Virus record (IMG/VR): IMGVR_UViG_2671180603_000017
Span: 1 to 9,748 of that record
DNA: 9,748 bases
Direction: 5' to 3' (one strand)
From: a virus
Taxonomy: Duplodnaviria > Heunggongvirae > Uroviricota > Caudoviricetes
The translations under genes and the position numbers were made by a program. Below the pieces are notes generated by a model, which worked only from the letters and a program-made list of their open reading frames with translations, was not told where the DNA came from and searched no databases. Positions 1 to 9,748 of this stretch are shown here, one piece after another. Position 1 is the first letter of the stretch; every line of letters begins with the position of its first letter.

Positions 1-75
1 CTGATAGTGACACCAATTTCAAAACAACCTTCAGACGTATTAACGTTTGGTAATAACGTCTCCATTATTGCGTCC

Positions 76-627
76 TCAACAATGAATTTTGAGTAATTGT
101 TCCACAGTCATATTTTTAATTGCGCCCCGGTTAACAAGAGTCCATCCCTGTTTTTCCAGATAAAACCGGAAAGTCTCCAGGGGACAGACCAGTGCGCCAT
201 CAGGAACGGTTTCGGTGAATTCGACATTGCCGAATTTGTCGAAGTGAACAACCAGAGTGCGACCATCACCCGGAATCATCTTGTCAGCAGGTGGGGTGTT
301 ATTCTGGCGCAGTTCGGCCTCCATGCGGTCGAACTCAGCAATGTATGCCTCTTTGAATGCGGCGGCTTTTTTGCCCGTGAAGCCCATCACCAGGAAAACG
401 AAGCCGTTTTTGGTGATTTGGTACATTGGGAGTTTGCGCCCGATTGAGTCGGTGTATTCGCTCGCTTCAAAATTGAGGGCAGTAAATTTATCTGAGCATT
501 CAATATTTGCGATGGCACGTAACACATTGTCGTGTCGTTTGTGGAAGAACTCTGCAACCGCAACAGACGTAGTGACAGCGCGACCGTTTTCTACGGTTAC
601 ACAAGGGTGAGAAAGGGTAGTAGCCAT
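76..627 (-). CDS. Rha-family phage regulatory (antirepressor-like) protein, module copy 1; 183 aa from ATG 625-627; an in-frame upstream AUG at 718-720 would add 31 aa
   Basis: The track ORF 76..990 carries Rha-type motifs from memory (ENGRAVTTS..AEFF.KRHDNVLR, then YQITKNGFVFLVMGFTGKKAAAFKEAYIAEFDRMEAEL). The ATG at 625-627 is preceded by GGAGG with 8-nt spacing. The track's longer N-terminal extension runs through a promoter, a non-coding RNA and a terminator, so it is unlikely to be coding. Confidence 0.7.
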   Translation of the reverse strand: MATTLSHPCVTVENGRAVTTSVAVAEFFHKRHDNVLRAIANIECSDKFTALNFEASEYTDSIGRKLPMYQITKNGFVFLVMGFTGKKAAAFKEAYIAEFDRMEAELRQNNTPPADKMIPGDGRTLVVHFDKFGNVEFTETVPDGALVCPLETFRFYLEKQGWTLVNRGAIKNMTVEQLLKIHC

Positions 628-660
628 GATGGCAGCCTCCGCGATGAATTTGATTAACTC

Positions 661-690
661 ACCACCGGAGGTAGCAATCTCATGGGTGGT
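661..690 (-). promoter_or_regulatory. Leader hairpin (stem CUCACCACC/GGUGGUGAG) whose loop contains site B (GAUUGCUACC), a same-sense mimic of the small-RNA loop
   Basis: 9-bp stem; the loop sequence is identical to the sRNA loop core and therefore complementary to site A; covaries in copy 2. Confidence 0.45.
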
Positions 691-700
691 GAGACGTACA

Positions 701-714
701 GGGTTGCTACAACC
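701..714 (-). promoter_or_regulatory. Leader target site A (mRNA sense GGUUGUAGCAACCC), complementary to the small-RNA loop; sits just downstream of in-frame GUG/AUG at 723-718
   Basis: Ten base pairs with one bulged nucleotide against sRNA GGG(A)UUGCUAC; covaries with the sRNA loop in copy 2. Confidence 0.5.
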
Positions 715-793
715 GGTCATCACGGAACCCGGCCAGTCTTGCGACTGCCCCGCACGCCCCACCATAATTTGAATGTGGCTGTGCATTACGCAT

Positions 794-816
794 AAAAAAA
801 CCGCCTGAGCGCGGTT
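794..816 (-). terminator. Intrinsic terminator: 6-bp stem AACCGC/GCGGUU, 6-nt loop, U7 tract
   Basis: Hairpin followed by a U-run on the minus strand; the plus strand has no T-run after the stem, so it is unidirectional. The stem is short, so termination may be partial. Confidence 0.45.
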
Positions 817-870
817 ATGCGCCGTGAATGACTTCGGGGTAGCAATCCCGGCACCCGTTTTATGAGGTGC
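794..870 (-). ncRNA. Putative ~77-nt antisense-type small RNA (c4-like by analogy), copy 1; second hairpin CGGG-AUUGCUAC-CCCG
   Basis: Strong promoter immediately upstream, no AUG inside, two hairpins (GCACC/GGUGC and CGGG/CCCG), ending in a stem (AACCGC/GCGGUU) plus U7 terminator. The loop is complementary to leader site 701-714. Confidence 0.5.
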
Positions 871-876
871 AGGTGC

Positions 877-905
877 ACTATAATTCCACCCGTTCTGGTT
901 TTCAA
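877..905 (-). promoter_or_regulatory. Sigma70-type promoter for the small RNA and possibly read-through Rha mRNA: -35 TTGAAA (905-900), 17-bp spacer, -10 TATAGT (882-877)
   Basis: Near-consensus hexamers at optimal spacing, read directly on the minus strand; identical in copy 2. Confidence 0.5.
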
Positions 906-1044
906 TAGCTACATTCAACATTTTCTCTTTCCTTTCATCACCGAAGTGAACTTTGTTGATGCGGTGAATGCGGCTCAGCGCACGCGGCACAGTTAAAAAG
1001 CGATTAGTTCCCCCGTATCGGGTGGTTATGGGTTTCCCTGTATA

Positions 1045-1610
1045 GCTGAACCAGACGTTCGCTCCTACAGCACCAAATCAGGTCTGGGTGGCGGACCTGA
1101 CGTATGTTGCCACACAGGAGGGATGGTTGTACCTCGCTGGCATCAAAGATGTTTATACGTGCGAAATTGTCGGCTACGCCATGGGAGAGCGCATGACAAA
1201 AGAGCTGACAGGTAAAGCCCTGTTTATGGCGCTCAGGAGCCAGCGCCCACCTGCCGGGCTAATCCACCACTCTGATCGAGGTTCACAGTACTGCGCATAC
1301 GATTACCGGGTCATACAGGAGCAGTCTGGTCTGAAAACATCAATGTCGCGTAAAGGTAACTGTTACGACAACGCTCCGATGGAAAGCTTCTGGGGAACGC
1401 TGAAAAATGAGAGCCTGAGCCACTATCGTTTTAATAACCGGGATGAAGCCATCTCAGTAATACGGGAATACATTGAGATTTTCTACAATCGTCAGCGTTG
1501 TCACTCTCGTCTGGGGAATATCTCCCCGGCAGCCTTCAGGGAAAAATATCATCAGATGGCTGCTTAAAAAAAGAACAAATGGTAGTGTCCGCTATTGCCA
1601 GTACACCTCA
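1045..1610 (+). mobile_element. IS3-family (IS600-like) element, 3' fragment of 566 bp ending at the right terminus ...GCCAGTACACCTCA
   Basis: Near-exact reverse-complement copy of 2823-3388; contains the transposase OrfB C-terminal coding region; the terminus ends in CA as in the IS3 family. Confidence 0.8.
1046..1567 (+). pseudogene. IS600-like transposase OrfB, C-terminal fragment (5'-truncated, no start codon)
   Basis: Track ORF 1088..1567 has a C-terminal sequence identical to that of ORF 2866..3966; the reading frame is open back to the fragment boundary. Confidence 0.8.
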
Positions 1611-2154
1611 AAAGTAATTGTTCCACAGTCATATTTTTAATTGCGCCCCGGTTAACAAGAGTCCATCCCTGTTTTTCCAGATAAAACCGGAAAGTCTCCA
1701 GGGGACAGACCAGTGCGCCATCAGGAACGGTTTCGGTGAATTCGACATTGCCGAATTTGTCGAAGTGAACAACCAGAGTGCGACCATCACCCGGAATCAT
1801 CTTGTCAGCAGGTGGGGTGTTATTCTGGCGCAGTTCGGCCTCCATGCGGTCGAACTCAGCAATGTATGCCTCTTTGAATGCGGCGGCTTTTTTGCCCGTG
1901 AAGCCCATCACCAGGAAAACGAAGCCGTTTTTGGTGATTTGGTACATTGGGAGTTTGCGCCCGGTTGAGTCGGTGTATTCGCTCGACACAAAATTGTGCT
2001 CAGTGAATTTTGCTGAACAGTCCAGATTGCGAATTTTATCCAACACTCGTTCGTGGCGTTTGCCAAAGAACTCGGCGATCGCAACAGAGGTAGTGACAGC
2101 GCGACCATTTTCGATGGTTACGTCAGGGTGAGAAAGGGTAAGGATAGTAGCCAT
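1564..2154 (-). CDS. Rha-family antirepressor-like protein, module copy 2 (196 aa from ATG 2154-2152); divergent N-terminal domain, C-terminal tail and stop codon supplied by the abutting IS600 end
   Basis: Mosaic paralog of 76..627: residues after the Rha domain are identical, the Rha domain is divergent (MATILTLSHPDVTIENGRAVTTSVAIAEFFGKRHERVL...). The last 11 codons (LRCTGNSGHYHLFFF*) read into IS sequence. Confidence 0.6.
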   Translation of the reverse strand: MATILTLSHPDVTIENGRAVTTSVAIAEFFGKRHERVLDKIRNLDCSAKFTEHNFVSSEYTDSTGRKLPMYQITKNGFVFLVMGFTGKKAAAFKEAYIAEFDRMEAELRQNNTPPADKMIPGDGRTLVVHFDKFGNVEFTETVPDGALVCPLETFRFYLEKQGWTLVNRGAIKNMTVEQLLLRCTGNSGHYHLFFF

Positions 2155-2323
2155 GATGGCAGCCTCCGCGATGAATTTGATTAACTCACCACCGAGGTTT
2201 TCCACGACCATAAGGGTGGTGAGACGTACAGGGGTGGAAATACCGGTCATCACGGAACCCGGCCAGCCTTGCGGTTGCCCTGCACGCCCCACCATAATGC
2301 GAATGTGGCTGTGCTTAACGCAT

Positions 2324-2400
2324 AAAAAAACCGCCTGAGCGCGGTTATGCGCCGTGAATGATTTCGGGTTTCCACGCCCGGCACCCGTTTTATGAGGTGC
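2324..2400 (-). ncRNA. Putative small RNA, copy 2; second hairpin CGGG-CGUGGAAA-CCCG
   Basis: Same promoter (-10 at 2412-2407, -35 at 2435-2430) and terminator as copy 1; differs from copy 1 only in the hairpin-2 loop and one adjacent base; loop complementary to leader site 2231-2244 (mRNA sense GGUAUUUCCACCCC). Confidence 0.5.
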
Positions 2401-2406
2401 AGGTGC

Positions 2407-2435
2407 ACTATAATTCCACCCGTTCTGGTTTTCAA
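2407..2435 (-). promoter_or_regulatory. Sigma70-type promoter for small RNA copy 2 (TTGAAA, 17 bp, TATAGT)
   Basis: Sequence identical to the copy 1 promoter. Confidence 0.5.
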
Positions 2436-2474
2436 TAGCTACATTCAACATTTTCTCTCACCTTTCATCACCGA

Positions 2475-2628
2475 AGTGAATTTTGTTGATGCGGTGCCTG
2501 GTGCCTCCAGGTGACGTTAACCAGTTAACAATTACAGTTGGCTTTCCCACCCAAACCAATAAGGACTAACATGACTTTTAACTGTGCCGCGTGCGCATAG
2601 CCGCATTCACCGCATCACAAAATTCACT
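2475..2628. repeat. 23-bp inverted repeat (AAGTGAATTTTGTTGATGCGGTG / CACCGCATCACAAAATTCACTT) flanking a ~107-bp spacer; right arm continues as an inverted copy of the copy 1 upstream sequence
   Basis: Direct comparison with copy 1 (941-1002) shows the distal segment is in opposite orientation in copy 2. Confidence 0.6.
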
Positions 2629-2865
2629 TTAAAAAGGGCGGACATCAGCCAGCAATTAAACCGATGCCGCCAACTGGTACTTCACACAGCAATGTCGTTA
2701 TTTACAACCGGAGGCGCACTCCCACCATTTAAATTTAACAGACAAGACCGACTCTTTATGGATACCGGAAATGCGCCTTCGTGTTGTGCCCGGTTTTATT
2801 TCACCACCTCCGGGCTTTGGTATGAGGTGTACTGGCAATAGCGGACACTACCATTTGTTCTTTTT

Positions 2866-4271
<1,406 letters not shown>

Positions 4272-4272
4272 G

Positions 4273-4575
4273 GTTCAGCAGATTTGGCGCAACTGGCAGA
4301 TTGTGGTTCGAGTTCGTAGTCGCTCTGAACTTGCGTTTCTGCTTACAGCGTAGCCTTAGCTCCTTACGAAGACGTGCCAGTCGGTCACGACCAACGATGA
4401 TGCCATTCTCTGCCAGCTCCGTCTGGAGCCGCCGGGTTCCATATGTTTCGCGAGTGCGGATATGTGCCACCTTAATCTCCAGTTTTAGCCGCTCATCACT
4501 TTGTTTTCTGTCTGAGGGTTCATGCTGTACCCAGTTGTAATAACCGCTCCTGGATACACCAAATACCTGACACAT
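4273..4575 (-). pseudogene. IS600-like OrfB N-terminal portion, interrupted at 4272 by the IS911-like terminus
   Basis: Track ORF 4198..4575 matches IS600-like OrfB (MCQVFGVSRSGYYNW...NLPVAPNLLN) and then diverges at the junction. Confidence 0.7.
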
Positions 4576-4610
4576 CGCTTCAATGGGAAATTGTTGTCGC
4601 CATTGTTCGA

Positions 4611-4913
4611 TTAACGCGTATTTTTCAGCGACTCCTGTGCAAAATACGCTGTTGCTTTTTTTAATATATCTCGCTCAAGGCGAGCTTCATTTAACGCCTT
4701 ACGCAGTTGCAGAATTTCAGATTCCAGTTCAGCCACCGTGCGGGAACCAGGAGTACCGAGCCCTTTTCTGGCGGCGGTAACCCATTGTCCTAAAGTGCCT
4801 TCAGGAAGAGATAATCGGGAAGCGCCTTCACTGATCGAAAGTTGATTTTCAGGAACCGTTCTGACAGCTTCGGCTTTGAACTCTTTAGAGTAACGTTGGG
4901 TTTTTCTGCTCAT
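4611..4913 (-). CDS. IS600-like OrfA (transposase N-terminal HTH and leucine-zipper protein, 100 aa)
   Basis: Track ORF MSRKTQRYSKEFKAEAVRTV...ILKKATAYFAQESLKNTR, typical IS3-family OrfA; followed by an overlapping orfB in the -1 frame. Confidence 0.8.
   Translation of the reverse strand: MSRKTQRYSKEFKAEAVRTVPENQLSISEGASRLSLPEGTLGQWVTAARKGLGTPGSRTVAELESEILQLRKALNEARLERDILKKATAYFAQESLKNTR
4655..4662 (-). promoter_or_regulatory. Programmed -1 ribosomal frameshift site (A AAA AAA G) joining orfA to orfB
   Basis: A7G run in the orfA frame (UUA AAA AAA GCA). The orfB frame is open from this point down to 4273 (read codon by codon), as in other IS3-family OrfAB fusions. Confidence 0.6.
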
Positions 4914-5023
4914 TATTAGCTCCTTCTGATGCCATTCTATTTCAGGAAGGAGTGTCCGTTAAACTCAGGCTACCTCAGTGGTATCTTTACTGAAGTTCTC
5001 ACACAACCAGTAAGGAAATGAAT

Positions 5024-5314
5024 ATGCCAACGTATCTCGCCAGAGTAGAACTATATAATGCTGAGCCAGAGGATTACGAAGGGCTTCATAAATATATGCT
5101 CTCACTAGGATTCAGGAGAACGATCCCCCATGGAGATGGTTCGTATAATCAACTCCCGGACGGAACTTATGTTTCCGAAAAGGGCGGTGATATTTATCAA
5201 ATTCGCAGCCAGATATCTGACTATGCAGACCGACTATCCAGGTATCGCGCGTCTGTTTTTGTTTGCGAATTCAGTCAATGCGCATGGTATTTATACCCCG
5301 CCAAGACCCGGTGA
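5024..5314 (+). CDS. Hypothetical protein, 96 aa (track ORF 5018..5314; second ATG favoured)
   Basis: AAGGAA Shine-Dalgarno 7 nt before ATG 5024; no recognisable family. Its 3' end overlaps the convergent gene 5291..5494 by 24 bp, so one of the two calls may be wrong. Confidence 0.35.
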   Translation: MPTYLARVELYNAEPEDYEGLHKYMLSLGFRRTIPHGDGSYNQLPDGTYVSEKGGDIYQIRSQISDYADRLSRYRASVFVCEFSQCAWYLYPAKTR

Positions 5315-5494
5315 ATATCCTGCACGGCCTTCTGCTTTGTAGAAGGCTTCTTCGCTATCATAATCGCCAGATTCCAGCGCTTCTTTAGCCAGCCAGATGC
5401 GTGCCCCAGTGCCTGCATTTGGCTCCAGTTGCTGGAGGCGTTTTGCATCTTCTAGGAGTAGAGCGATAACGTGTTTTAATTCTGTCTCGTTCAT
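5291..5494 (-). CDS. Hypothetical small acidic protein, 67 aa (MNETELKHVIALLLEDAKRL...)
   Basis: ATG 5494-5492 preceded by AGGTGA; start lies 4 nt after the stop of the upstream small gene (compact, possibly coupled). Confidence 0.45.
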   Translation of the reverse strand: MNETELKHVIALLLEDAKRLQQLEPNAGTGARIWLAKEALESGDYDSEEAFYKAEGRAGYSPGLGGV

Positions 5495-5495
5495 T

Positions 5496-5651
5496 TTACT
5501 CACCTGAATGTCTTCCCAACCAACGACGTGCGCCAGCTTCGGTTTTAAACGTTTTGCTTTTGGTATACGTCATGGCGGTGAATGTGCCGTCTTGATTGGG
5601 AAACACGCCACATACCAGAGATTCGTTGTTGCCAAGATCGATAGTATTCAT
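5496..5651 (-). CDS. Hypothetical small protein, 51 aa (MNTIDLGNNESLVCGVFPNQDG...)
   Basis: ATG at 5651-5649 with a G-rich Shine-Dalgarno upstream; first gene downstream of the leftward promoter at 5832-5860. The track ORF's TTG start at 5714 is unlikely. Confidence 0.45.
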   Translation of the reverse strand: MNTIDLGNNESLVCGVFPNQDGTFTAMTYTKSKTFKTEAGARRWLGRHSGE

Positions 5652-5831
5652 GTTGACCCCATTTCCCCTTAACGCCGGGTGGCGGAACGTTTTATCTACT
5701 GCGCTTTGTATCAATCAACAACTGCCGTCATGTTCGTATGCCTCAGGCTGGCTACTTAGCCCTGTTCAGTGACTGGATAACTCGAGGTATTGTCCTGCCG
5801 TTCTCTGGTGGGGCGTTGTTTGGATATGCTT

Positions 5832-5873
5832 ATTAAACACAATTTGTTTTCTTGTGTCAACACGCAACGTGTT
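5832..5873 (-). promoter_or_regulatory. Leftward (PL-like) promoter: -35 TTGACA (5860-5855), 17-bp spacer, -10 TTTAAT (5837-5832); overlapped by operator-like palindromes AACACGCAACGTGTT (5859-5873) and ACACAA-N9-TTGTGT (5837-5857)
   Basis: Hexamers and palindromes read directly; the half-site AACAC/GTGTT recurs in the divergent promoter region at 6434-6448. Confidence 0.45.
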
Positions 5874-5902
5874 TTATGGTGAGTGTCATATGATGATGCT
5901 AC

Positions 5903-5925
5903 AAAAAAGCCCGCTGATAGCGGGC
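5903..5925 (-). terminator. Intrinsic terminator of the repressor gene: stem GCCCGC/GCGGGC, 5-nt loop, U6 tract
   Basis: GC-rich hairpin followed by a U-run on the minus strand, 32 nt downstream of the repressor stop. Confidence 0.6.
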
Positions 5926-5956
5926 TGATTGGCATATTACTGTGATAGCAAGATCA

Positions 5957-6376
5957 TTATTCCGGTGGGGGATTATCTTTAATCCTGCCTCTCAAATATT
6001 TTTCTACATACTCATCGATTTCTTTTAGCCGGACTTCAAATAGCTCAATCATTCGTTGTTGTTCTGAGCCCGGTAGCTGGTTAAACAACTCAAGAAGTTT
6101 TCGTTGGGATTCATTTAACCACAATTCAGAAGATTCCTGTTCTCCAAAGAGGAGCTCAGGAGGAGATATGCCAAGTGCCTTTCCCAATACGACAGCGTCA
6201 TGTACTCCAACATTTCTGCTGCCCGCCTCATAGTTACCTATACGCGATTGCGTCCATCCGCAGATTTCAGCAAGTTTTCCTTGAGATAAACCAAGCTTCT
6301 GCCTGCGCTCTTTAAGACGCATTGCAATTTTGTCATTGAGCCTACTAGCGGCAATTTTTTCGTTTTCTTTTTCCAT
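5957..6376 (-). CDS. Prophage repressor, HTH XRE family (DicA/CI-like), 139 aa
   Basis: HTH motif LGLSQGKLAEICGWTQSRIGNYEAG; a C-terminal segment (QRKLLELFNQLPGSEQQRMIELFE) resembles my recollection of DicA; divergently arranged with a Cro-like gene. Confidence 0.7.
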   Translation of the reverse strand: MEKENEKIAASRLNDKIAMRLKERRQKLGLSQGKLAEICGWTQSRIGNYEAGSRNVGVHDAVVLGKALGISPPELLFGEQESSELWLNESQRKLLELFNQLPGSEQQRMIELFEVRLKEIDEYVEKYLRGRIKDNPPPE

Positions 6377-6387
6377 TGCATCCTTGT

Positions 6388-6448
6388 ATCACGAATCGTG
6401 ATTTACATAAAACACAAAACAGCTTGGCTATATAACACAAGGTGTGTT
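6388..6448. promoter_or_regulatory. Divergent promoter/operator region: palindromes ATCACGA-A-TCGTGAT (6388-6402) and AACACAAGGTGTGTT (6434-6448)
   Basis: Perfect inverted repeats in the 96-bp intergenic region between the repressor and Cro-like genes; GGAGG Shine-Dalgarno at 6462-6466. Confidence 0.5.
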
Positions 6449-6472
6449 TAAAATTGTCATCGGAGGTTTTCA

Positions 6473-6715
6473 ATGAACAAAATTTCAACATATCGAAAAC
6501 AGCTTGGGCTGTCTCAAAGACAACTTGCTGTTCAGTTAGGGTGGATACAAAGCCGACTGGCAAATTACGAAGCAAATTTTCGTACCCCTGGACTAGAGGA
6601 GTGCAGAAAAATTGTTTCTACCCTTAATCGGCTTGGCGCTCATTGTGGACTTGACGATGTATTCCCCCCAGACGGTAAGCATAGCGAAAACAGCATAGGA
6701 GCGGTTGATTCATGA
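6473..6715 (+). CDS. Cro/YdaS-like HTH DNA-binding protein, 80 aa
   Basis: HTH motif LGLSQRQLAVQLGWIQSRLANYEAN, nearly the same recognition helix as the repressor; strong RBS; stop overlaps the next ATG (ATGA). Confidence 0.65.
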   Translation: MNKISTYRKQLGLSQRQLAVQLGWIQSRLANYEANFRTPGLEECRKIVSTLNRLGAHCGLDDVFPPDGKHSENSIGAVDS

Positions 6716-7133
6716 AAATCAGGCATGAGCACATCGAATCAGTGCTGTTGCCCTGGCAGCCGAAAAAGGGCAGGCGTGGGTCGCTAACGCAATTACTGAA
6801 GAATATCTGCGCCAGGGGGGCGGCGAATTGCCCCTTGTACCAGGCAAGGACTGGAACAATCAGCAGAATATCTATCACCGTTGGTTGAAAGGTGAAACGA
6901 AAGCGCAAAGGGAAAAAATTCAGAAACTGATCCCTGCGGTTCTGGCAATTCTTCCGCGTGAGCTGCGTCACCGACTCTGTATCTTCGATACCCTGGAACG
7001 CCGTGCATTACTGGCGGCGCAGGAAGCGTTGAGTACGGCAATTGATGCGCATGATGATGCAGTCCAGGCCGTTTACCGGAAAGCGCATTTCAGCGGCGGC
7101 GGGTCTTCCGACGATTCTGTCATTGTTCATTAA
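6712..7133 (+). pseudogene. ydaT: YdaT-like (Rac prophage) gene with an apparent 1-bp deletion frameshift near 6748-6752
   Basis: ATG 6712 is translationally coupled (ATGA) and encodes MKIRHEHIESVL, then hits a stop at 6886. The rest of the protein (AEKGQAWVANAITEEYLRQGGGELPLVPGKDWNN...SDDSVIVH) is in the -1 shifted frame (track ORF 6828..7133), which has no ATG or GTG start. Confidence 0.55.
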
Positions 7134-7196
7134 GCAAAAGTTTCCATGCTGTTTGTGCTTATTCTAAGCAACCGGGCAGCATCATACGGGGCAATT

Positions 7197-8345
7197 ATGG
7201 CCGCATTACCATACATGCAACTGTACATAGCTGATTACCTGGCTGACACCATGCATTTGTCAGCAGAGGAGCACGGCGCGTATTTGTTGCTGATGTTCAA
7301 TTACTGGCAAACAGGAAAGCCAATACCCAAAAACAGGTTGGCAAAAATTGCCCGTCTGACTAACGAGCGATGGGTTGATGTTGAACCATCCTTGCGGGAG
7401 TTTTTTTGTGATAACGGCGACGAATGGATGCATCTTCGGATTGAGGAAGATCTGGCATCTGTCAGAGAAAAATTAACCAAAAAATCAGCCGCAGGAAAAG
7501 CATCTGTTCAGGCCAGAAGAAGCAGAAAGGAAGCAGATGTTCAAACAAAACAAGAGAGAAATTTAACAGGTGTTCAAACAGATGTTGGAGTGATGTTCGA
7601 ACATGATGCCAACACAAAGGCAACTAATAAAGATACAGATAAAGATCTAAAAACAGATCTAACCCATCCCAAACCCTTCCCTTCCGGAAGGGAGTTTCGG
7701 GATTTTGTGGCTGGAGTGCTTGAGGGGAGATTATCTGGCGGTACTGCAGCGGAATTTTGTAATTCTGCGGTGGTTGCGTTGCAGGCTGCTGGCCTGGATG
7801 TCTGTCGTGAGTATCCGGTGCCAGAGCGTGGTGACGGTTGCGGAGGGCGGATTGATATCGTCGTGACTGACAGGAACGGTGTCCGGTGTGGGAGCGAGCT
7901 TGACCGAAATTCTCCGCGACAGAAATCACTGCTCAAAATCGGTGCTGTTGAAACCGGGATATGTGTCTTGCGGCGCAGTGATATCGCAAGGCACACCGAG
8001 CAGGGAATTCTGGTTATCGGTGGGGCTGTTCGCCAGAAAAAATTTGACCCGTTGTCAGTTGATCTGCCCGACTGGTTGCCAGAAACACTCTGGCATGAGT
8101 GGGTCCAGTTCAGGCAGGCATTGCGAAAACCGATTCGAACGGAGCAGGGCGCTAACGGGGCGATACGGGAACTGGAAAAATTCCGTCAGCAGGGTTTTAC
8201 ACCTGAGCAGGTGATTCGACACAGCATCGCCAATGAATACCAGGGTCTGTTCGCGCCGAAAGGTGTTCGGCCTGAGACGTTGCTCCGACAGGTTAACACC
8301 GTCTCGTTGCCGGACAGTGCGATCCCGCCAGGCTTCAGGGGGTAA
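7197..8345 (+). CDS. YdaU-like phage replication protein (N-terminal DUF1376-type domain, charged linker, C-terminal domain), 382 aa; alternative start 7146
   Basis: Track ORF 7146..8345; the internal ATG 7197 has a G-rich Shine-Dalgarno; N-terminus MAALPYMQLYIADYLADTMHLSAEEHGAYLLLMFNYW; positioned directly upstream of a DnaC-like gene. Confidence 0.6.
   Translation: MAALPYMQLYIADYLADTMHLSAEEHGAYLLLMFNYWQTGKPIPKNRLAKIARLTNERWVDVEPSLREFFCDNGDEWMHLRIEEDLASVREKLTKKSAAGKASVQARRSRKEADVQTKQERNLTGVQTDVGVMFEHDANTKATNKDTDKDLKTDLTHPKPFPSGREFRDFVAGVLEGRLSGGTAAEFCNSAVVALQAAGLDVCREYPVPERGDGCGGRIDIVVTDRNGVRCGSELDRNSPRQKSLLKIGAVETGICVLRRSDIARHTEQGILVIGGAVRQKKFDPLSVDLPDWLPETLWHEWVQFRQALRKPIRTEQGANGAIRELEKFRQQGFTPEQVIRHSIANEYQGLFAPKGVRPETLLRQVNTVSLPDSAIPPGFRG
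7536..7660. other. Putative replication origin inside the YdaU-like gene: three 12-bp iteron-like repeats G(A/G)TGTTC(A/G)AACA at 7536, 7569 and 7592, then an AT-rich segment with two GATC sites (7621-7660)
   Basis: Repeats read directly; they fall in the low-complexity linker coding region, as the lambda origin does within gene O. Confidence 0.35.
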
Positions 8346-8351
8346 CAGACC

Positions 8352-9098
8352 ATGAAAAATATTGCGACAGGAGGCGTTCTGGAGCGTATCCGCAGACTGA
8401 CCCCACCACATGTAACCGCCCCATTCAGAACGGTTGCGGAGTGGCGCGAGTGGCAACTTGCTGAAGGCCAGAAACGTTGCGAGGAGATCAACCGCCTGAA
8501 TCGTCAGTTGCGGGTGGAAAAAATCCTGAACCGCTCCGGCATCCAGCCGTTGCACCGGAAGTGTTCGTTTGCGAATTACCGGGCGCAGAACGACGGTCAG
8601 CGACATGCACTGAGTCAGGCGAAATCCATAGCTGACGAACTGATGACAGGCTGTACGAATTTTGTGTTCAGCGGTAAGCCCGGCACCGGAAAAAATCATC
8701 TTGCAGACGCGATTGGCAACCGGCTGATGGCGAAGGGGCGTAGCGTGATTATCGTCACCGTGTCCGATGTCATGAGCGTGTTGCATGAGAGCTACGACAA
8801 CGGCAAATCCGGTGAAAAATTTTTACAGGAGCTTTGTGGTGTTGACCTGCTGGTCCTGGATGAAATTGGCATGCAGCGGGATACGAAAAACGAGCAGGTG
8901 GTACTGAACCAGATTGTTGATCGCCGGACGGCATCGTTACGCGGTGTGGGGATGCTGACAAATATTAACCATGCAGCGATGAATACACTTCTCGGCGAGC
9001 GGGTGATGGATCGCATGGTCATGAACGGCGGGCGCTGGGTGAATTTTAACTGGGAGAGCTGGCGTCCGAATGTTAGCCATTCGAGGGTTGTTAAGTAG
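8352..9098 (+). CDS. ydaV: DnaC/IstB-like AAA+ helicase loader (YdaV-like replication protein), 248 aa
   Basis: Walker A GKPGTGKNHLA and Walker B LLVLDEIG; position after the replication-initiator-like gene; close to my recollection of Rac YdaV. Confidence 0.75.
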   Translation: MKNIATGGVLERIRRLTPPHVTAPFRTVAEWREWQLAEGQKRCEEINRLNRQLRVEKILNRSGIQPLHRKCSFANYRAQNDGQRHALSQAKSIADELMTGCTNFVFSGKPGTGKNHLADAIGNRLMAKGRSVIIVTVSDVMSVLHESYDNGKSGEKFLQELCGVDLLVLDEIGMQRDTKNEQVVLNQIVDRRTASLRGVGMLTNINHAAMNTLLGERVMDRMVMNGGRWVNFNWESWRPNVSHSRVVK

Positions 9099-9112
9099 TT
9101 TCAGGAGGATTT

Positions 9113-9535
9113 ATGGCGAAACCTTTTACTCCCGAACAGCGGGAAGAACTGAAGACGCGAATTGTGGAACTCGTGCATCAGGACGGTCGGGTCACGATTC
9201 GGCAGTTGTCAGATGAAACAGGTATCAGTCGTGCGTCTGTCGGTCGCTTATGCATAGAACTGGTCGCAAGTGGTGATGTATATAATTCTGGCTACGGCTT
9301 ATTCCCGTCTGAACAGGCTCGCAAGGACTGGCAAAGCGCCCGCAAAAAACTCTCGAGAGTAAAGGTGAGGAAACCGGTTGTTGTTGATCCGGACCTTATC
9401 TGGTCATTACCTGACGGAGAAATACGCCGCTACGACAGGCGCCTGAATATAATCTGTCGCGAGTGCCGGAAGAGCGAAGCTATGCAGCGTGTACTGGCTT
9501 TCTATCAGGGTAATTTTCAGGAGGCGATACTGTGA
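9113..9535 (+). CDS. Hypothetical phage protein with a putative N-terminal winged-HTH (VTIRQLSDETGISRASVGRL), 140 aa
   Basis: AGGAGG Shine-Dalgarno 5 nt before the ATG; C-terminal region duplicated in the next gene. Confidence 0.55.
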   Translation: MAKPFTPEQREELKTRIVELVHQDGRVTIRQLSDETGISRASVGRLCIELVASGDVYNSGYGLFPSEQARKDWQSARKKLSRVKVRKPVVVDPDLIWSLPDGEIRRYDRRLNIICRECRKSEAMQRVLAFYQGNFQEAIL

Positions 9536-9592
9536 ATGAAATTAGCTATCAGGCTTCAATTACCGCTGGCATTCGCATCAAAGGAGAGGAGC

Positions 9593-9748
9593 ATGGAAAT
9601 AAAACACAAAAAGCTATCGAGGGTAAAGGTGAAGAAACCGGTTGTGGTTGATCCTGACCTTATCTGGTCATTACCAGACGGAGAAATACGCCGCTACGAC
9701 AGGCGCCTGAATATAATCTGTCGCGAGTGCCGGAAGAGCGAAGCTATG
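9593..9748 (+). CDS. Partial CDS (3' end outside window), paralog sharing the C-terminal module of the preceding gene (…KLSRVKVKKPVVVDPDLIWSLPDGEIRRYDRRLNIICRECRKSEAM…)
   Basis: ATG 9593 preceded by AAGGAGAGGAG; an in-frame alternative ATG exists at 9536; 9610-9748 is near-identical to 9347-9485. Confidence 0.5.
   Translation, partial: MEIKHKKLSRVKVKKPVVVDPDLIWSLPDGEIRRYDRRLNIICRECRKSEAM

Follow-up and report, generated by a model that had tools for sequence, protein, structure and literature searches.

The virus record IMGVR_UViG_2671180603_000017 (Caudoviricetes) was analysed over positions 1 to 9,748, and this whole stretch of 9,748 nucleotides is hereafter referred to as the window. Ahead of a gene for a Rha-family protein, the leader contains a hairpin whose loop repeats the loop of a small RNA (sRNA) encoded upstream. 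An earlier note on this DNA proposed that this loop (site B) pairs with a complementary site of the same mRNA (site A), and that the sRNA acts by displacing B from A. The locus raises the question of whether site B is a new mimic internal to the mRNA or part of a system already described. The model matches and the likeness to phage P1 make it probable that both copies of this leader present in the window are antisense cassettes of the P1/P7 immI type, in which site B would be a2, a target of the C4 antisense RNA. On this reading the arrangement is already known, site B being the ordinary a2 target of a P1-type C4 system, and the value of the analysis is mainly clarifying with respect to the apparent new mimic.

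Two IsrK-C4 cassettes in the window

The window contains two paralogous modules on the minus strand, to which the coordinates of all regulatory features refer (copy 1, about 1000-76; copy 2, about 2520-1564). Their regulatory parts are 91% identical in an alignment, and each copy contains an isrK sRNA followed by a C4 antisense RNA, both above the Rfam gathering scores (45 bits for C4, RF01695; 50 bits for isrK, RF01394; the score for c4-a1b1, RF03163, is 46.7 bits). The order of the cassette would be promoter, IsrK (with sites a1 and b1), a leaky terminator, C4 (a' and b'), a2, b2 with the Shine-Dalgarno (SD) sequence, and an antirepressor-type gene (Rha). The upstream features are as follows.

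877..905, minus strand: sigma-70-like promoter (-35 TTGAAA, 17-nt spacer, -10 TATAGT; 10/12 matches)
794..870, minus strand: IsrK-family sRNA, copy 1 (RF01394, 64.8 bits)
846-839, minus strand: a1 of copy 1, loop of IsrK hairpin 2, AUUGCUAC
832-822, minus strand: b1 of copy 1, 3' of a1 in the IsrK linker, GUCAUUCACGG
816-799, minus strand: intrinsic terminator of IsrK, with a U tract after it, from a terminator scan
2324..2400, minus strand: IsrK, copy 2 (RF01394, 67.7 bits), with the a1 loop CGUGGAAA (2376-2369)
682..769, minus strand: C4 antisense RNA, copy 1 (RF01695, 79.0 bits, full-length 1-87; minimum free energy [MFE] -44.5 kcal/mol, z -4.2)
764-748 with 703-687, 747-734 and 733-712, minus strand: stems P1, P2 and P3 of C4 copy 1
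728-717, minus strand: b', the loop of stem P3, GUUCCGUGAUGA
711-704, minus strand: a' of copy 1, the J3/1 junction (site A), UGUAGCAA
686-682, minus strand: CCCAU trailing the C4 stem of copy 1
2212..2299, minus strand: C4, copy 2 (RF01695, 76.3 bits), with a b' loop identical to that of copy 1
2241-2234, minus strand: a' of copy 2, the J3/1 junction, AUUUCCAC

The promoter at 905-877 places the start of transcription at about 870, which is the 5' end of IsrK. The sRNA of copy 1 thus has the features of its class, with a match to RF01394, a promoter and an intrinsic terminator of its own and a position upstream of the orf45/C4 region. The match of this sRNA to the c4-a1b1 model was weak (20.6 bits, E 0.0065) and below the gathering score. 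The upstream copy of the target sites, a1/b1, nevertheless sits in a two-hairpin motif, as a P1-type module demands. In Gifsy-1 and Lahn2, both the isrK and the c4-a1b1 models scored above threshold on one and the same sequence. The a1b1 region of P1 (131-212) matched the entire isrK model, terminator hairpin included (35 bits, E 7e-6), and this match suggests that P1 may also make an IsrK-like short RNA. Since P1 a1b1 fits the isrK model and the Gifsy-1 and Lahn2 sequences exceed both thresholds, IsrK can be considered the a1b1 RNA of this family.

Site A, which the earlier note treated as simply part of the mRNA leader, belongs to a C4 antisense RNA, of which it forms the J3/1 junction; the C4 matches of the two copies (79 and 76 bits) exceed the gathering score of 45. 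All 17 pairs of stem P1 are standard in copy 1, and the MFE structure is the consensus fold. Past the C4 stem, copy 1 has a tRNA-like CCCA; the corresponding letters of copy 2 are CCCU. The AUG at 720, previously put forward as a start codon, falls in the b' loop; as this loop differs between loci (42 types), a conserved start codon at this position is unlikely. Directly downstream of C4 we found complementarity to both a' (at a2) and b' (at b2), the feature by which P1-type modules are recognized. By analogy with P1 and Gifsy-1, it is likely that the C4 RNA of the window is processed, acts in trans and regulates in the same direction.

A conserved AUG in the 5' strand of C4 (765 in copy 1; the start of "orf45" in Gifsy-1) opens a stop-free frame that runs in-frame into the Rha ATG. 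A continuous frame from this AUG into the downstream gene was found in 66/105 related loci, a count that ignores kinship. In the window, the open reading frames (ORFs) 76..990 and 1564..2451 span these frames, and public records often carry one long ORF across IsrK and C4, annotated as "immunity region" or "transcriptional regulator".

Hairpin H1 and the a2 site

The leader hairpin, hereafter H1, and the a2 site that it contains have the following coordinates.

658..693, minus strand: H1, copy 1, with X arm CUCACCACC (693-685) and Y arm GGUGGUGAG (666-658)
684-667, minus strand: loop of H1 copy 1, 18 nt, CAUGAGAUUGCUACCUCC
681-679 with 670-668, minus strand: inner 3-bp stem of H1 copy 1, GAG with CUC, closing an octaloop
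671..678, minus strand: a2 target site of C4 (site B), the octaloop, AUUGCUAC, complementary to a' and starting 4-5 nt after the 3' end of C4
2185..2223, minus strand: H1, copy 2, with X arm 2223-2215, Y arm 2193-2185 and a loop of 21 nt (2214-2194) containing CGUGGAAAA
2205-2199, minus strand: core of a2 in copy 2, GUGGAAA

The 9-bp hairpin described in the earlier note was recovered, with exact X:Y complementarity in both copies. Folded in isolation, H1 reached -18.6 kcal/mol in copy 1 (z -4.2, with 0/200 shuffles as good) and -16.7 kcal/mol in copy 2 (z -3.0, with 3/200 shuffles as good). It was also correct, for both copies, that the loop has the same sense as the sRNA loop and is complementary to site A; the loops of IsrK hairpin 2 read AUUGCUAC in copy 1 and CGUGGAAA in copy 2. 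The a':a2 duplexes were specific to each copy, with energies of -12.8 and -13.7 kcal/mol for the cognate pairs and of -9.0 and -4.4 kcal/mol across copies.

The X arm consists of the last 7 nt of the 3' strand of stem P1 of C4 and the trailing CC. H1 and the full C4 fold are therefore mutually exclusive, as the X arm is taken from the 17-bp closing stem of C4. H1 is thus a predicted alternative helix, using the 3' strand of the closing stem, with an inner stem of 3-4 bp. It would present a2 in a loop of 6-8 nt, resembling the presentation of a1 by IsrK hairpin 2.

Covariation across related C4 loci

Related C4 loci were collected from phage records and by two pattern scans of viral contigs, yielding 122 unique loci (among them P1, L066; Gifsy-1, L065; and L001, of the copy-2 type). 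A false-positive class ("CATACGCTT", 13 records), admitted by a relaxed C4 anchor, was excluded from this set. The collected loci included 19 a-specificities, P1 among them, and 42 types of b' loop. Each representative of an a-type had a perfect complement of a' of 7-8 nt (a2) at +6 to +13 past the C4 stem and another of 6-7 nt (a1) about 80 nt upstream of C4. The covariation of site A, site B and the sRNA loop, noted earlier for the two copies, therefore holds three ways (a1, a' and a2) in all 19 specificities.

Matches of at least 7 nt were found for a2 at a frequency of 0.90 in cognate versus 0.07 in non-cognate combinations, and for b2 at 0.76 versus 0.03; the test set of 135 records still contained the 13 false-positive records, and these figures are therefore conservative. 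In a MAFFT alignment of 32 representatives, evaluated against 500 shuffles and slid controls, the a':a2 covariation score was 0.609, versus 0.155 in the shuffles (0/500), with 87.5% of the cells paired (27-50% in the slid controls) and two-sided changes in 53 cells, versus 14 in the shuffles.

The arms of H1 were also conserved. X and Y formed an uninterrupted helix of 7 bp or more in 121/122 unique loci, versus 8% of shuffled controls. For H1 with its inner stem (52 representatives, 500 shuffles and slid controls), 88% of the cells were paired, versus 79% in the shuffles and 31-56% in the slid controls, and two-sided changes occurred in 10/13 pairs, a number reached by 0/500 shuffles. Matched variants of X and Y included CCACCGC/GCGGUGG, UCGCCACC/GGUGGCGA and CCAUCACC/GGUGAUGG, and the inner stem beside a2 covaried too (pair 27-42: AU 21, CG 7, UG 6 and UA 5). 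H1 is thus a conserved feature of the family and not a peculiarity of this locus, since it is kept across loci and has a weaker form in P1. The family-wide conservation of H1 and of the alternative SD-sequestering helix described below is undocumented in the literature searched, in which the only prior mention of H1 is a passing remark on possible terminators, in PMC2864571. Both helices are kept across about 120 loci with different cargo, and they yield testable predictions for IsrK-driven translation of antirepressors.

Three loci departed from these patterns. In phage SfV (L054, U82619), the a2 site, about 10-16 nt past the C4 stem, reads UUGCCGU, whereas its own a' (UACGCCAA) demands UUGGCGU; this was the sole locus of 122 without an a' match of at least 4 nt, the search minimum. 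A target-site escape mutation may be responsible for the mismatch, or else an error in sequencing. In the IMG/VR contig L017, a copy-1-type IsrK loop is combined with a C4 and an a2 of the copy-2 type, and an N is present at the junction; in contig L042, a copy-2-type IsrK loop is joined with a C4 whose 5' part is of the copy-1 type. These two contigs are apparent chimeras, possibly assembly artefacts.

The Shine-Dalgarno region and competing folds

Downstream of a2, the leader contains the second target site and a helix that competes with H1.

637..647, minus strand: b2 target site, UCAUCGCGGAG, forming 11 bp (including 2 G.U) with b' and overlapping GGAGG
640-636, minus strand: SD sequence GGAGG of Rha copy 1 (ATG 627-625)
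636..671, minus strand: alternative leader hairpin H2, copy 1 (copy 2, 2197-2163)

The b':b2 duplex (-20.0 kcal/mol) lies across the SD, and b2 overlaps the ribosome-binding site (RBS) of the first downstream gene, as in P1-type systems. The earlier note, in arguing for something beyond simple occlusion of the RBS, had overlooked this direct occlusion by b':b2. In H2, CCUCCG (671-666) pairs with CGGAGG (641-636), and UGGUGAGUU (664-656, in the Y arm) pairs with AAUUCAUCG (650-642, in the b2 region). The fragment 681-628, which contains this SD-sequestering hairpin, folded at -24.3 kcal/mol (z -4.75). In the MFE structure of the free precursor of copy 1, H2 was present, and the Y arm was placed there rather than in H1.

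A similar organization is predicted in most of the relatives. In 105 leaders, the mean probability of the SD being paired was 0.81 and the mean folding z was -2.9, and in leader-only folds the partner of the SD was the pyrimidine spacer between a2 and Y in 91/104 loci. The pairing of CCUCC (671-667) with GGAGG (640-636), 31 nt downstream, that the earlier note had suggested is therefore a consistent prediction; however, it belongs to H2 and not to H1. When C4 and the leader were co-folded, canonical C4 was retained in the MFE structure of 21/22 loci.

Folding was carried out with ViennaRNA, the models of which do not extend to pseudoknots or kissing (loop-loop) contacts. Across 105 loci, forcing H1 in the free precursor had a mean cost of +9.2 kcal/mol, and of +1.7 kcal/mol when b2/SD was blocked. 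With b2/SD blocked, H1 appeared in the MFE structure of 27/105 loci, both window types among them. With the IsrK-binding segment (a' and the inner part of the 3' strand of stem P1) blocked, this number rose to 78/105, and b' paired in cis with b2/SD in the three MFE structures inspected. We also considered a simple scheme in which IsrK binding would allow H1 to form and H1 would free the SD. The free precursor gave a probability of 0.19 for an unpaired SD, and blocking of the IsrK-binding segment gave 0.15; the SD thus stays closed under blocking, and this scheme is not supported by thermodynamics alone.

Proposed mechanism and alternative explanations

The anatomy, family membership, covariation and energetics of the cassette are direct results of this analysis, and a mode of action can be proposed by analogy with P1 and Gifsy-1. 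Read-through transcripts would yield a stable, processed C4 RNA, the a' and b' sites of which would pair with a2 and b2, respectively; the b':b2 duplex would cover the SD and block translation of Rha. IsrK, carrying a1 and b1, would be a mimic of a2/b2 and would bind C4, or the C4 part of the precursor, relieving repression. The calculated duplexes with IsrK in copy 1 had energies of -17.0 kcal/mol (a':a1) and -16.0 kcal/mol (b':b1). In the free precursor, H1 would be disfavoured and its Y arm would lie in the SD-sequestering helix, paired with the b2 region beside CCUCC:GGAGG; H1 would become about isoenergetic once b2/SD is engaged. Competition of the sRNA for site A, as the earlier note had it, fits the proposal of Citron and Schuster (1990) for P1 as well as the compensatory mutants of Gifsy-1, both considered below.

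Several observations weigh against this scheme. RNAcofold of IsrK with the C4-leader precursor left C4 folded and a' and b' uninvolved, in a model in which loop-loop kissing is not representable. The authors of the Gifsy-1 study (PMC4825925) attribute activation to an opened orf45 RBS together with translational coupling rather than to a2/b2, and in their hands constitutive STnc1160 (an RNA of about 80 nt from Gifsy-1) enhanced IsrK toxicity and did not block it. In addition, b', b1 and b2 are identical between the two copies in the window, and a', a1 and a2 differ. With b' in common, each C4 RNA would be expected to act at the SD site of the other copy as well, leaving the a site as the only means of discrimination.

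With regard to the role of H1, we tentatively propose, although the odds are against it, that this hairpin is one state of a conserved three-strand exchange switch sharing the Y arm. With the closing stem of C4 shut, Y (GGUGGUGAG) would pair with the b2 region beside the helix of anti-SD and SD, leaving the SD occluded and a2 open. Engagement of b2/SD, or opening of the C4 stem by IsrK, would make Y move to the 3' strand of that stem; after the swap, a2 would be shown in a kissing loop and the anti-SD would be locked in the inner stem. If this is true, the C4 cassette would be partly a cis-acting riboregulator, in which the folding and processing of C4, the binding of IsrK and the access of ribosomes would be coupled, and the switch could explain the 20-fold activation by IsrK that persists in Gifsy-1 when the first start codon of orf45 is mutated (PMC4825925). 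It is quite improbable, by comparison, that H1 has no function of its own and that the X:Y complementarity is a by-product, incidental because the C4 stem constrains X and the SD-sequestering helix (or coding) constrains Y. H1 is indeed missing from the MFE structure of the free precursor, and Y is G/U-rich and promiscuous in its pairing, with a probability of being paired of 0.85 in leader-only folds. However, Y varies in step with X, as in CCACCGC/GCGGUGG and the other matched pairs, and the covariation extends to the inner stem flanking a2.

The mechanism favoured by the earlier note, in which A:B is mainly an intramolecular, pseudoknot-like contact of the unprocessed mRNA that gates the start codons, IsrK displacing B from A, appears unlikely. 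A and B do lie about 25 nt apart on one transcript and covary, and the appearance of H1 in 78/105 loci on blocking of the IsrK-binding segment is compatible with such a contact, as in the three MFE structures inspected the cis b':b2/SD helix encloses H1 and a' would face the a2 loop. The MFE structure of the read-through transcript 870-622 also contains long-range cis a1:a' and b1:b' pairings, like "structure A" of Gifsy-1. However, C4 is the first structure to form as the RNA is transcribed, and the X arm is held in its 17-bp stem; in copy 1, the fold containing H1 is 12 kcal/mol above the MFE (nested part only), and loop 3 of the putative pseudoknot would have, by a geometric estimate, just 1-4 nt to cross a helix of 7-8 bp. 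Moreover, C4 is trans-acting genetically in P1 and processed in P1 and Gifsy-1, and b':b2 or H2 already occludes the SD, with no need for an A:B contact. The least probable explanation is that H1 is an intrinsic terminator or attenuator overlapping the C4 stem, with the C4 fold as antiterminator, in line with a remark made by Weinberg in 2010; the 3' half of stem P1 of C4 is reported sometimes to overlap a predicted terminator hairpin (PMC2864571). Some relatives have a U run past the Y arm (L059, for example, with GAGUUUUUU), but at least 5 U within 8 nt past the arm were found in only 15/122 loci, and H1 loops measure 14-22 nt across the family. In the window itself, H1 was rejected as a terminator: the loops measure 18 and 21 nt (3-8 expected), the tail past the Y arm is UUAAUCAAAUU, and a scan of 560-1010 found the IsrK terminator only.

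Cargo genes and genomic surroundings

The genes downstream of the two cassettes are the following.

76..627, minus strand: Rha-family gene, copy 1, the regulated cargo (PF09669, 1e-31; ATG 627-625)
1564..2154, minus strand: Rha-family gene, copy 2 (PF09669, 5.7e-31, in a scan of 1564-2157; ATG 2154-2152, SD GGAGG 2167-2163)

The cargo of the window is thus, as judged from its domain match, a Rha-family protein, probably of the antirepressor type. The IsrK-C4-a2-b2 cassette was found ahead of unrelated cargo (L065, L063, L060, L062, L066 and this window): Rha in the window, ORF6N in Gifsy-1 (AnrP) and Lahn2 (Ant), Derepression in the P2-like phage P88, Ash in a Yersinia phage and Icd/Ant in P1. 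The cassette therefore behaves as a portable regulatory module.

Copy 2 is flanked by inverted, 100% identical copies (1045-1610 and 2823-3388) of a 566-nt insertion sequence (IS) element of the IS3 family, with rve domains, annotated as IS600 in a related Escherichia coli locus; one IS copy starts right past the 3' end of Rha copy 2. Over 300 nt of their 3' parts (92-391 and 1613-1912), the Rha genes share 100% identity. Judging from the identity of the IS copies and of these 3' parts, the region may have undergone a recent duplication or inversion associated with the IS element. Among complete E. coli genomes, a single one covered 80% or more of positions 1-3000. The sequence just upstream of the IsrK promoter region recurs as an inverted repeat of 47 nt (952-998 and 2576-2622, 91% complementary). 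Further along the window, a prophage early region (5957-9535) contains an HTH_3 repressor-like gene (5957-6376, minus strand) followed by DUF1376, IstB/DnaC-like and DUF977 genes on the plus strand, and a 142-nt direct repeat (9343-9484 and 9607-9748, 95% identical) is present at the end of the window.

Comparison with known systems

The C4 antisense system was described for P1 and P7 in 1990 and is catalogued in Rfam. In P1, C4 is a processed 77-nt repressor acting in trans, with RNase P at its 5' end, and, according to the supplement of PMC2864571, Citron and Schuster (1990) proposed a competition for c4 between a1/b1 and a2/b2. The P1 GenBank record (L066) places a1 at 156-162, b1 at 170-177, c4 at 244-320, a2 at 324-330, b2 at 353-360 and the icd start at 371; in it, a2 follows c4 at a distance of 4 nt and b2 covers the RBS of icd. 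P1 also has a weaker H1 (CCUGCCACC/GGGUAGCAGG, 8/9 pairs) with a2 (UUUGACA) in its loop. The arrangement in the window, which the earlier note had regarded as unlike that of P1, therefore closely resembles it. As in the P1/P7 immI region, a1 lies in the loop of a two-hairpin motif, b1 is just 3' of it, and a terminator-like hairpin and then C4 follow, the loop of IsrK hairpin 2 (846-839) corresponding to a1, 711-704 to a' and 678-671 to a2. In both, a' is the J3/1 junction and b' the P3 loop, and the spacing is similar (4-10 nt from C4 to a2, about 22 nt from there to b2, which covers the RBS, and another 8-10 nt to the start codon). The two differ in that Rha is translated directly from the b2 RBS, whereas P1 has icd and then ant1/ant2; in the upstream element, which matches isrK better in the window (64.8 bits, versus 20.6 for c4-a1b1) and c4-a1b1 better in P1 (51 bits, versus 35 for isrK); and in the host element, a lambdoid or Rac-like prophage region in the window and a plasmid prophage in P1.

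The isrK-orf45-anrP locus of Gifsy-1 (L065) has the same Rfam families as the window in the same order. According to Hershko-Shalev et al. (2016, PMC4825925), IsrK in trans increases anrP translation 139-fold, the compensatory mutants G28A/C162U and G31A/C159U behave as predicted, and a processed species of about 80 nt, STnc1160, is produced. Mapped onto the Gifsy-1 locus, G28 and G31 of IsrK lie in the a1 loop and C162 and C159 of orf45 in a', so that the published mutants validate the a1:a' pairing; G173 and C175 map to the 3' strand of stem P1, just ahead of X. The C4 region is the counterpart of the "orf45" of Gifsy-1, the AUG of which lies in the 5' strand of stem P1, and processed C4 is the counterpart of STnc1160. 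The a2 hairpin of Gifsy-1 is CCGA-UUGGCG-UCGG within UCACCACC/GGUGGUGA, with b2 over the SD, as in the window. The two loci differ in cargo (AnrP, with an ORF6N domain, versus Rha), and orf45 stops at an AUGA overlapping the anrP start, whereas the frame of the window runs in-frame into Rha.

Other systems share single aspects with the cassette. In satellite phage P4 (seqA, CI RNA or seqB, and seqC), as here, a processed antisense RNA lies between copies of its own target, and the Gifsy-1 authors cite P4 seqA-CI-seqC as a structural analogue of IsrK; CI, however, acts by premature transcription termination (both according to PMC4825925), and the Rfam scan of the window yielded no match to a P4-specific family. 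In the anti-sRNA sponges AgvB and AsxR, encoded by prophages of enterohaemorrhagic E. coli, a target mimic titrates an antisense RNA, as IsrK would; unlike in these sponges, a single promoter in the window drives transcription of mimic, antisense RNA and target together.

In the literature searched, the IsrK-orf45-AnrP and P1 immI systems are handled as separate systems, for example in a 2025 review (PMC12197685), and a term search of the main text of PMC4825925 found no mention of P1, RNase P or Rfam. The Gifsy-1 model covers nt 1-180 only, with a2, Y and b2 outside (PMC4825925), and so omits the a2/b2 region. The IsrK-orf45-AnrP locus and the P1 immI operon nevertheless correspond part for part.

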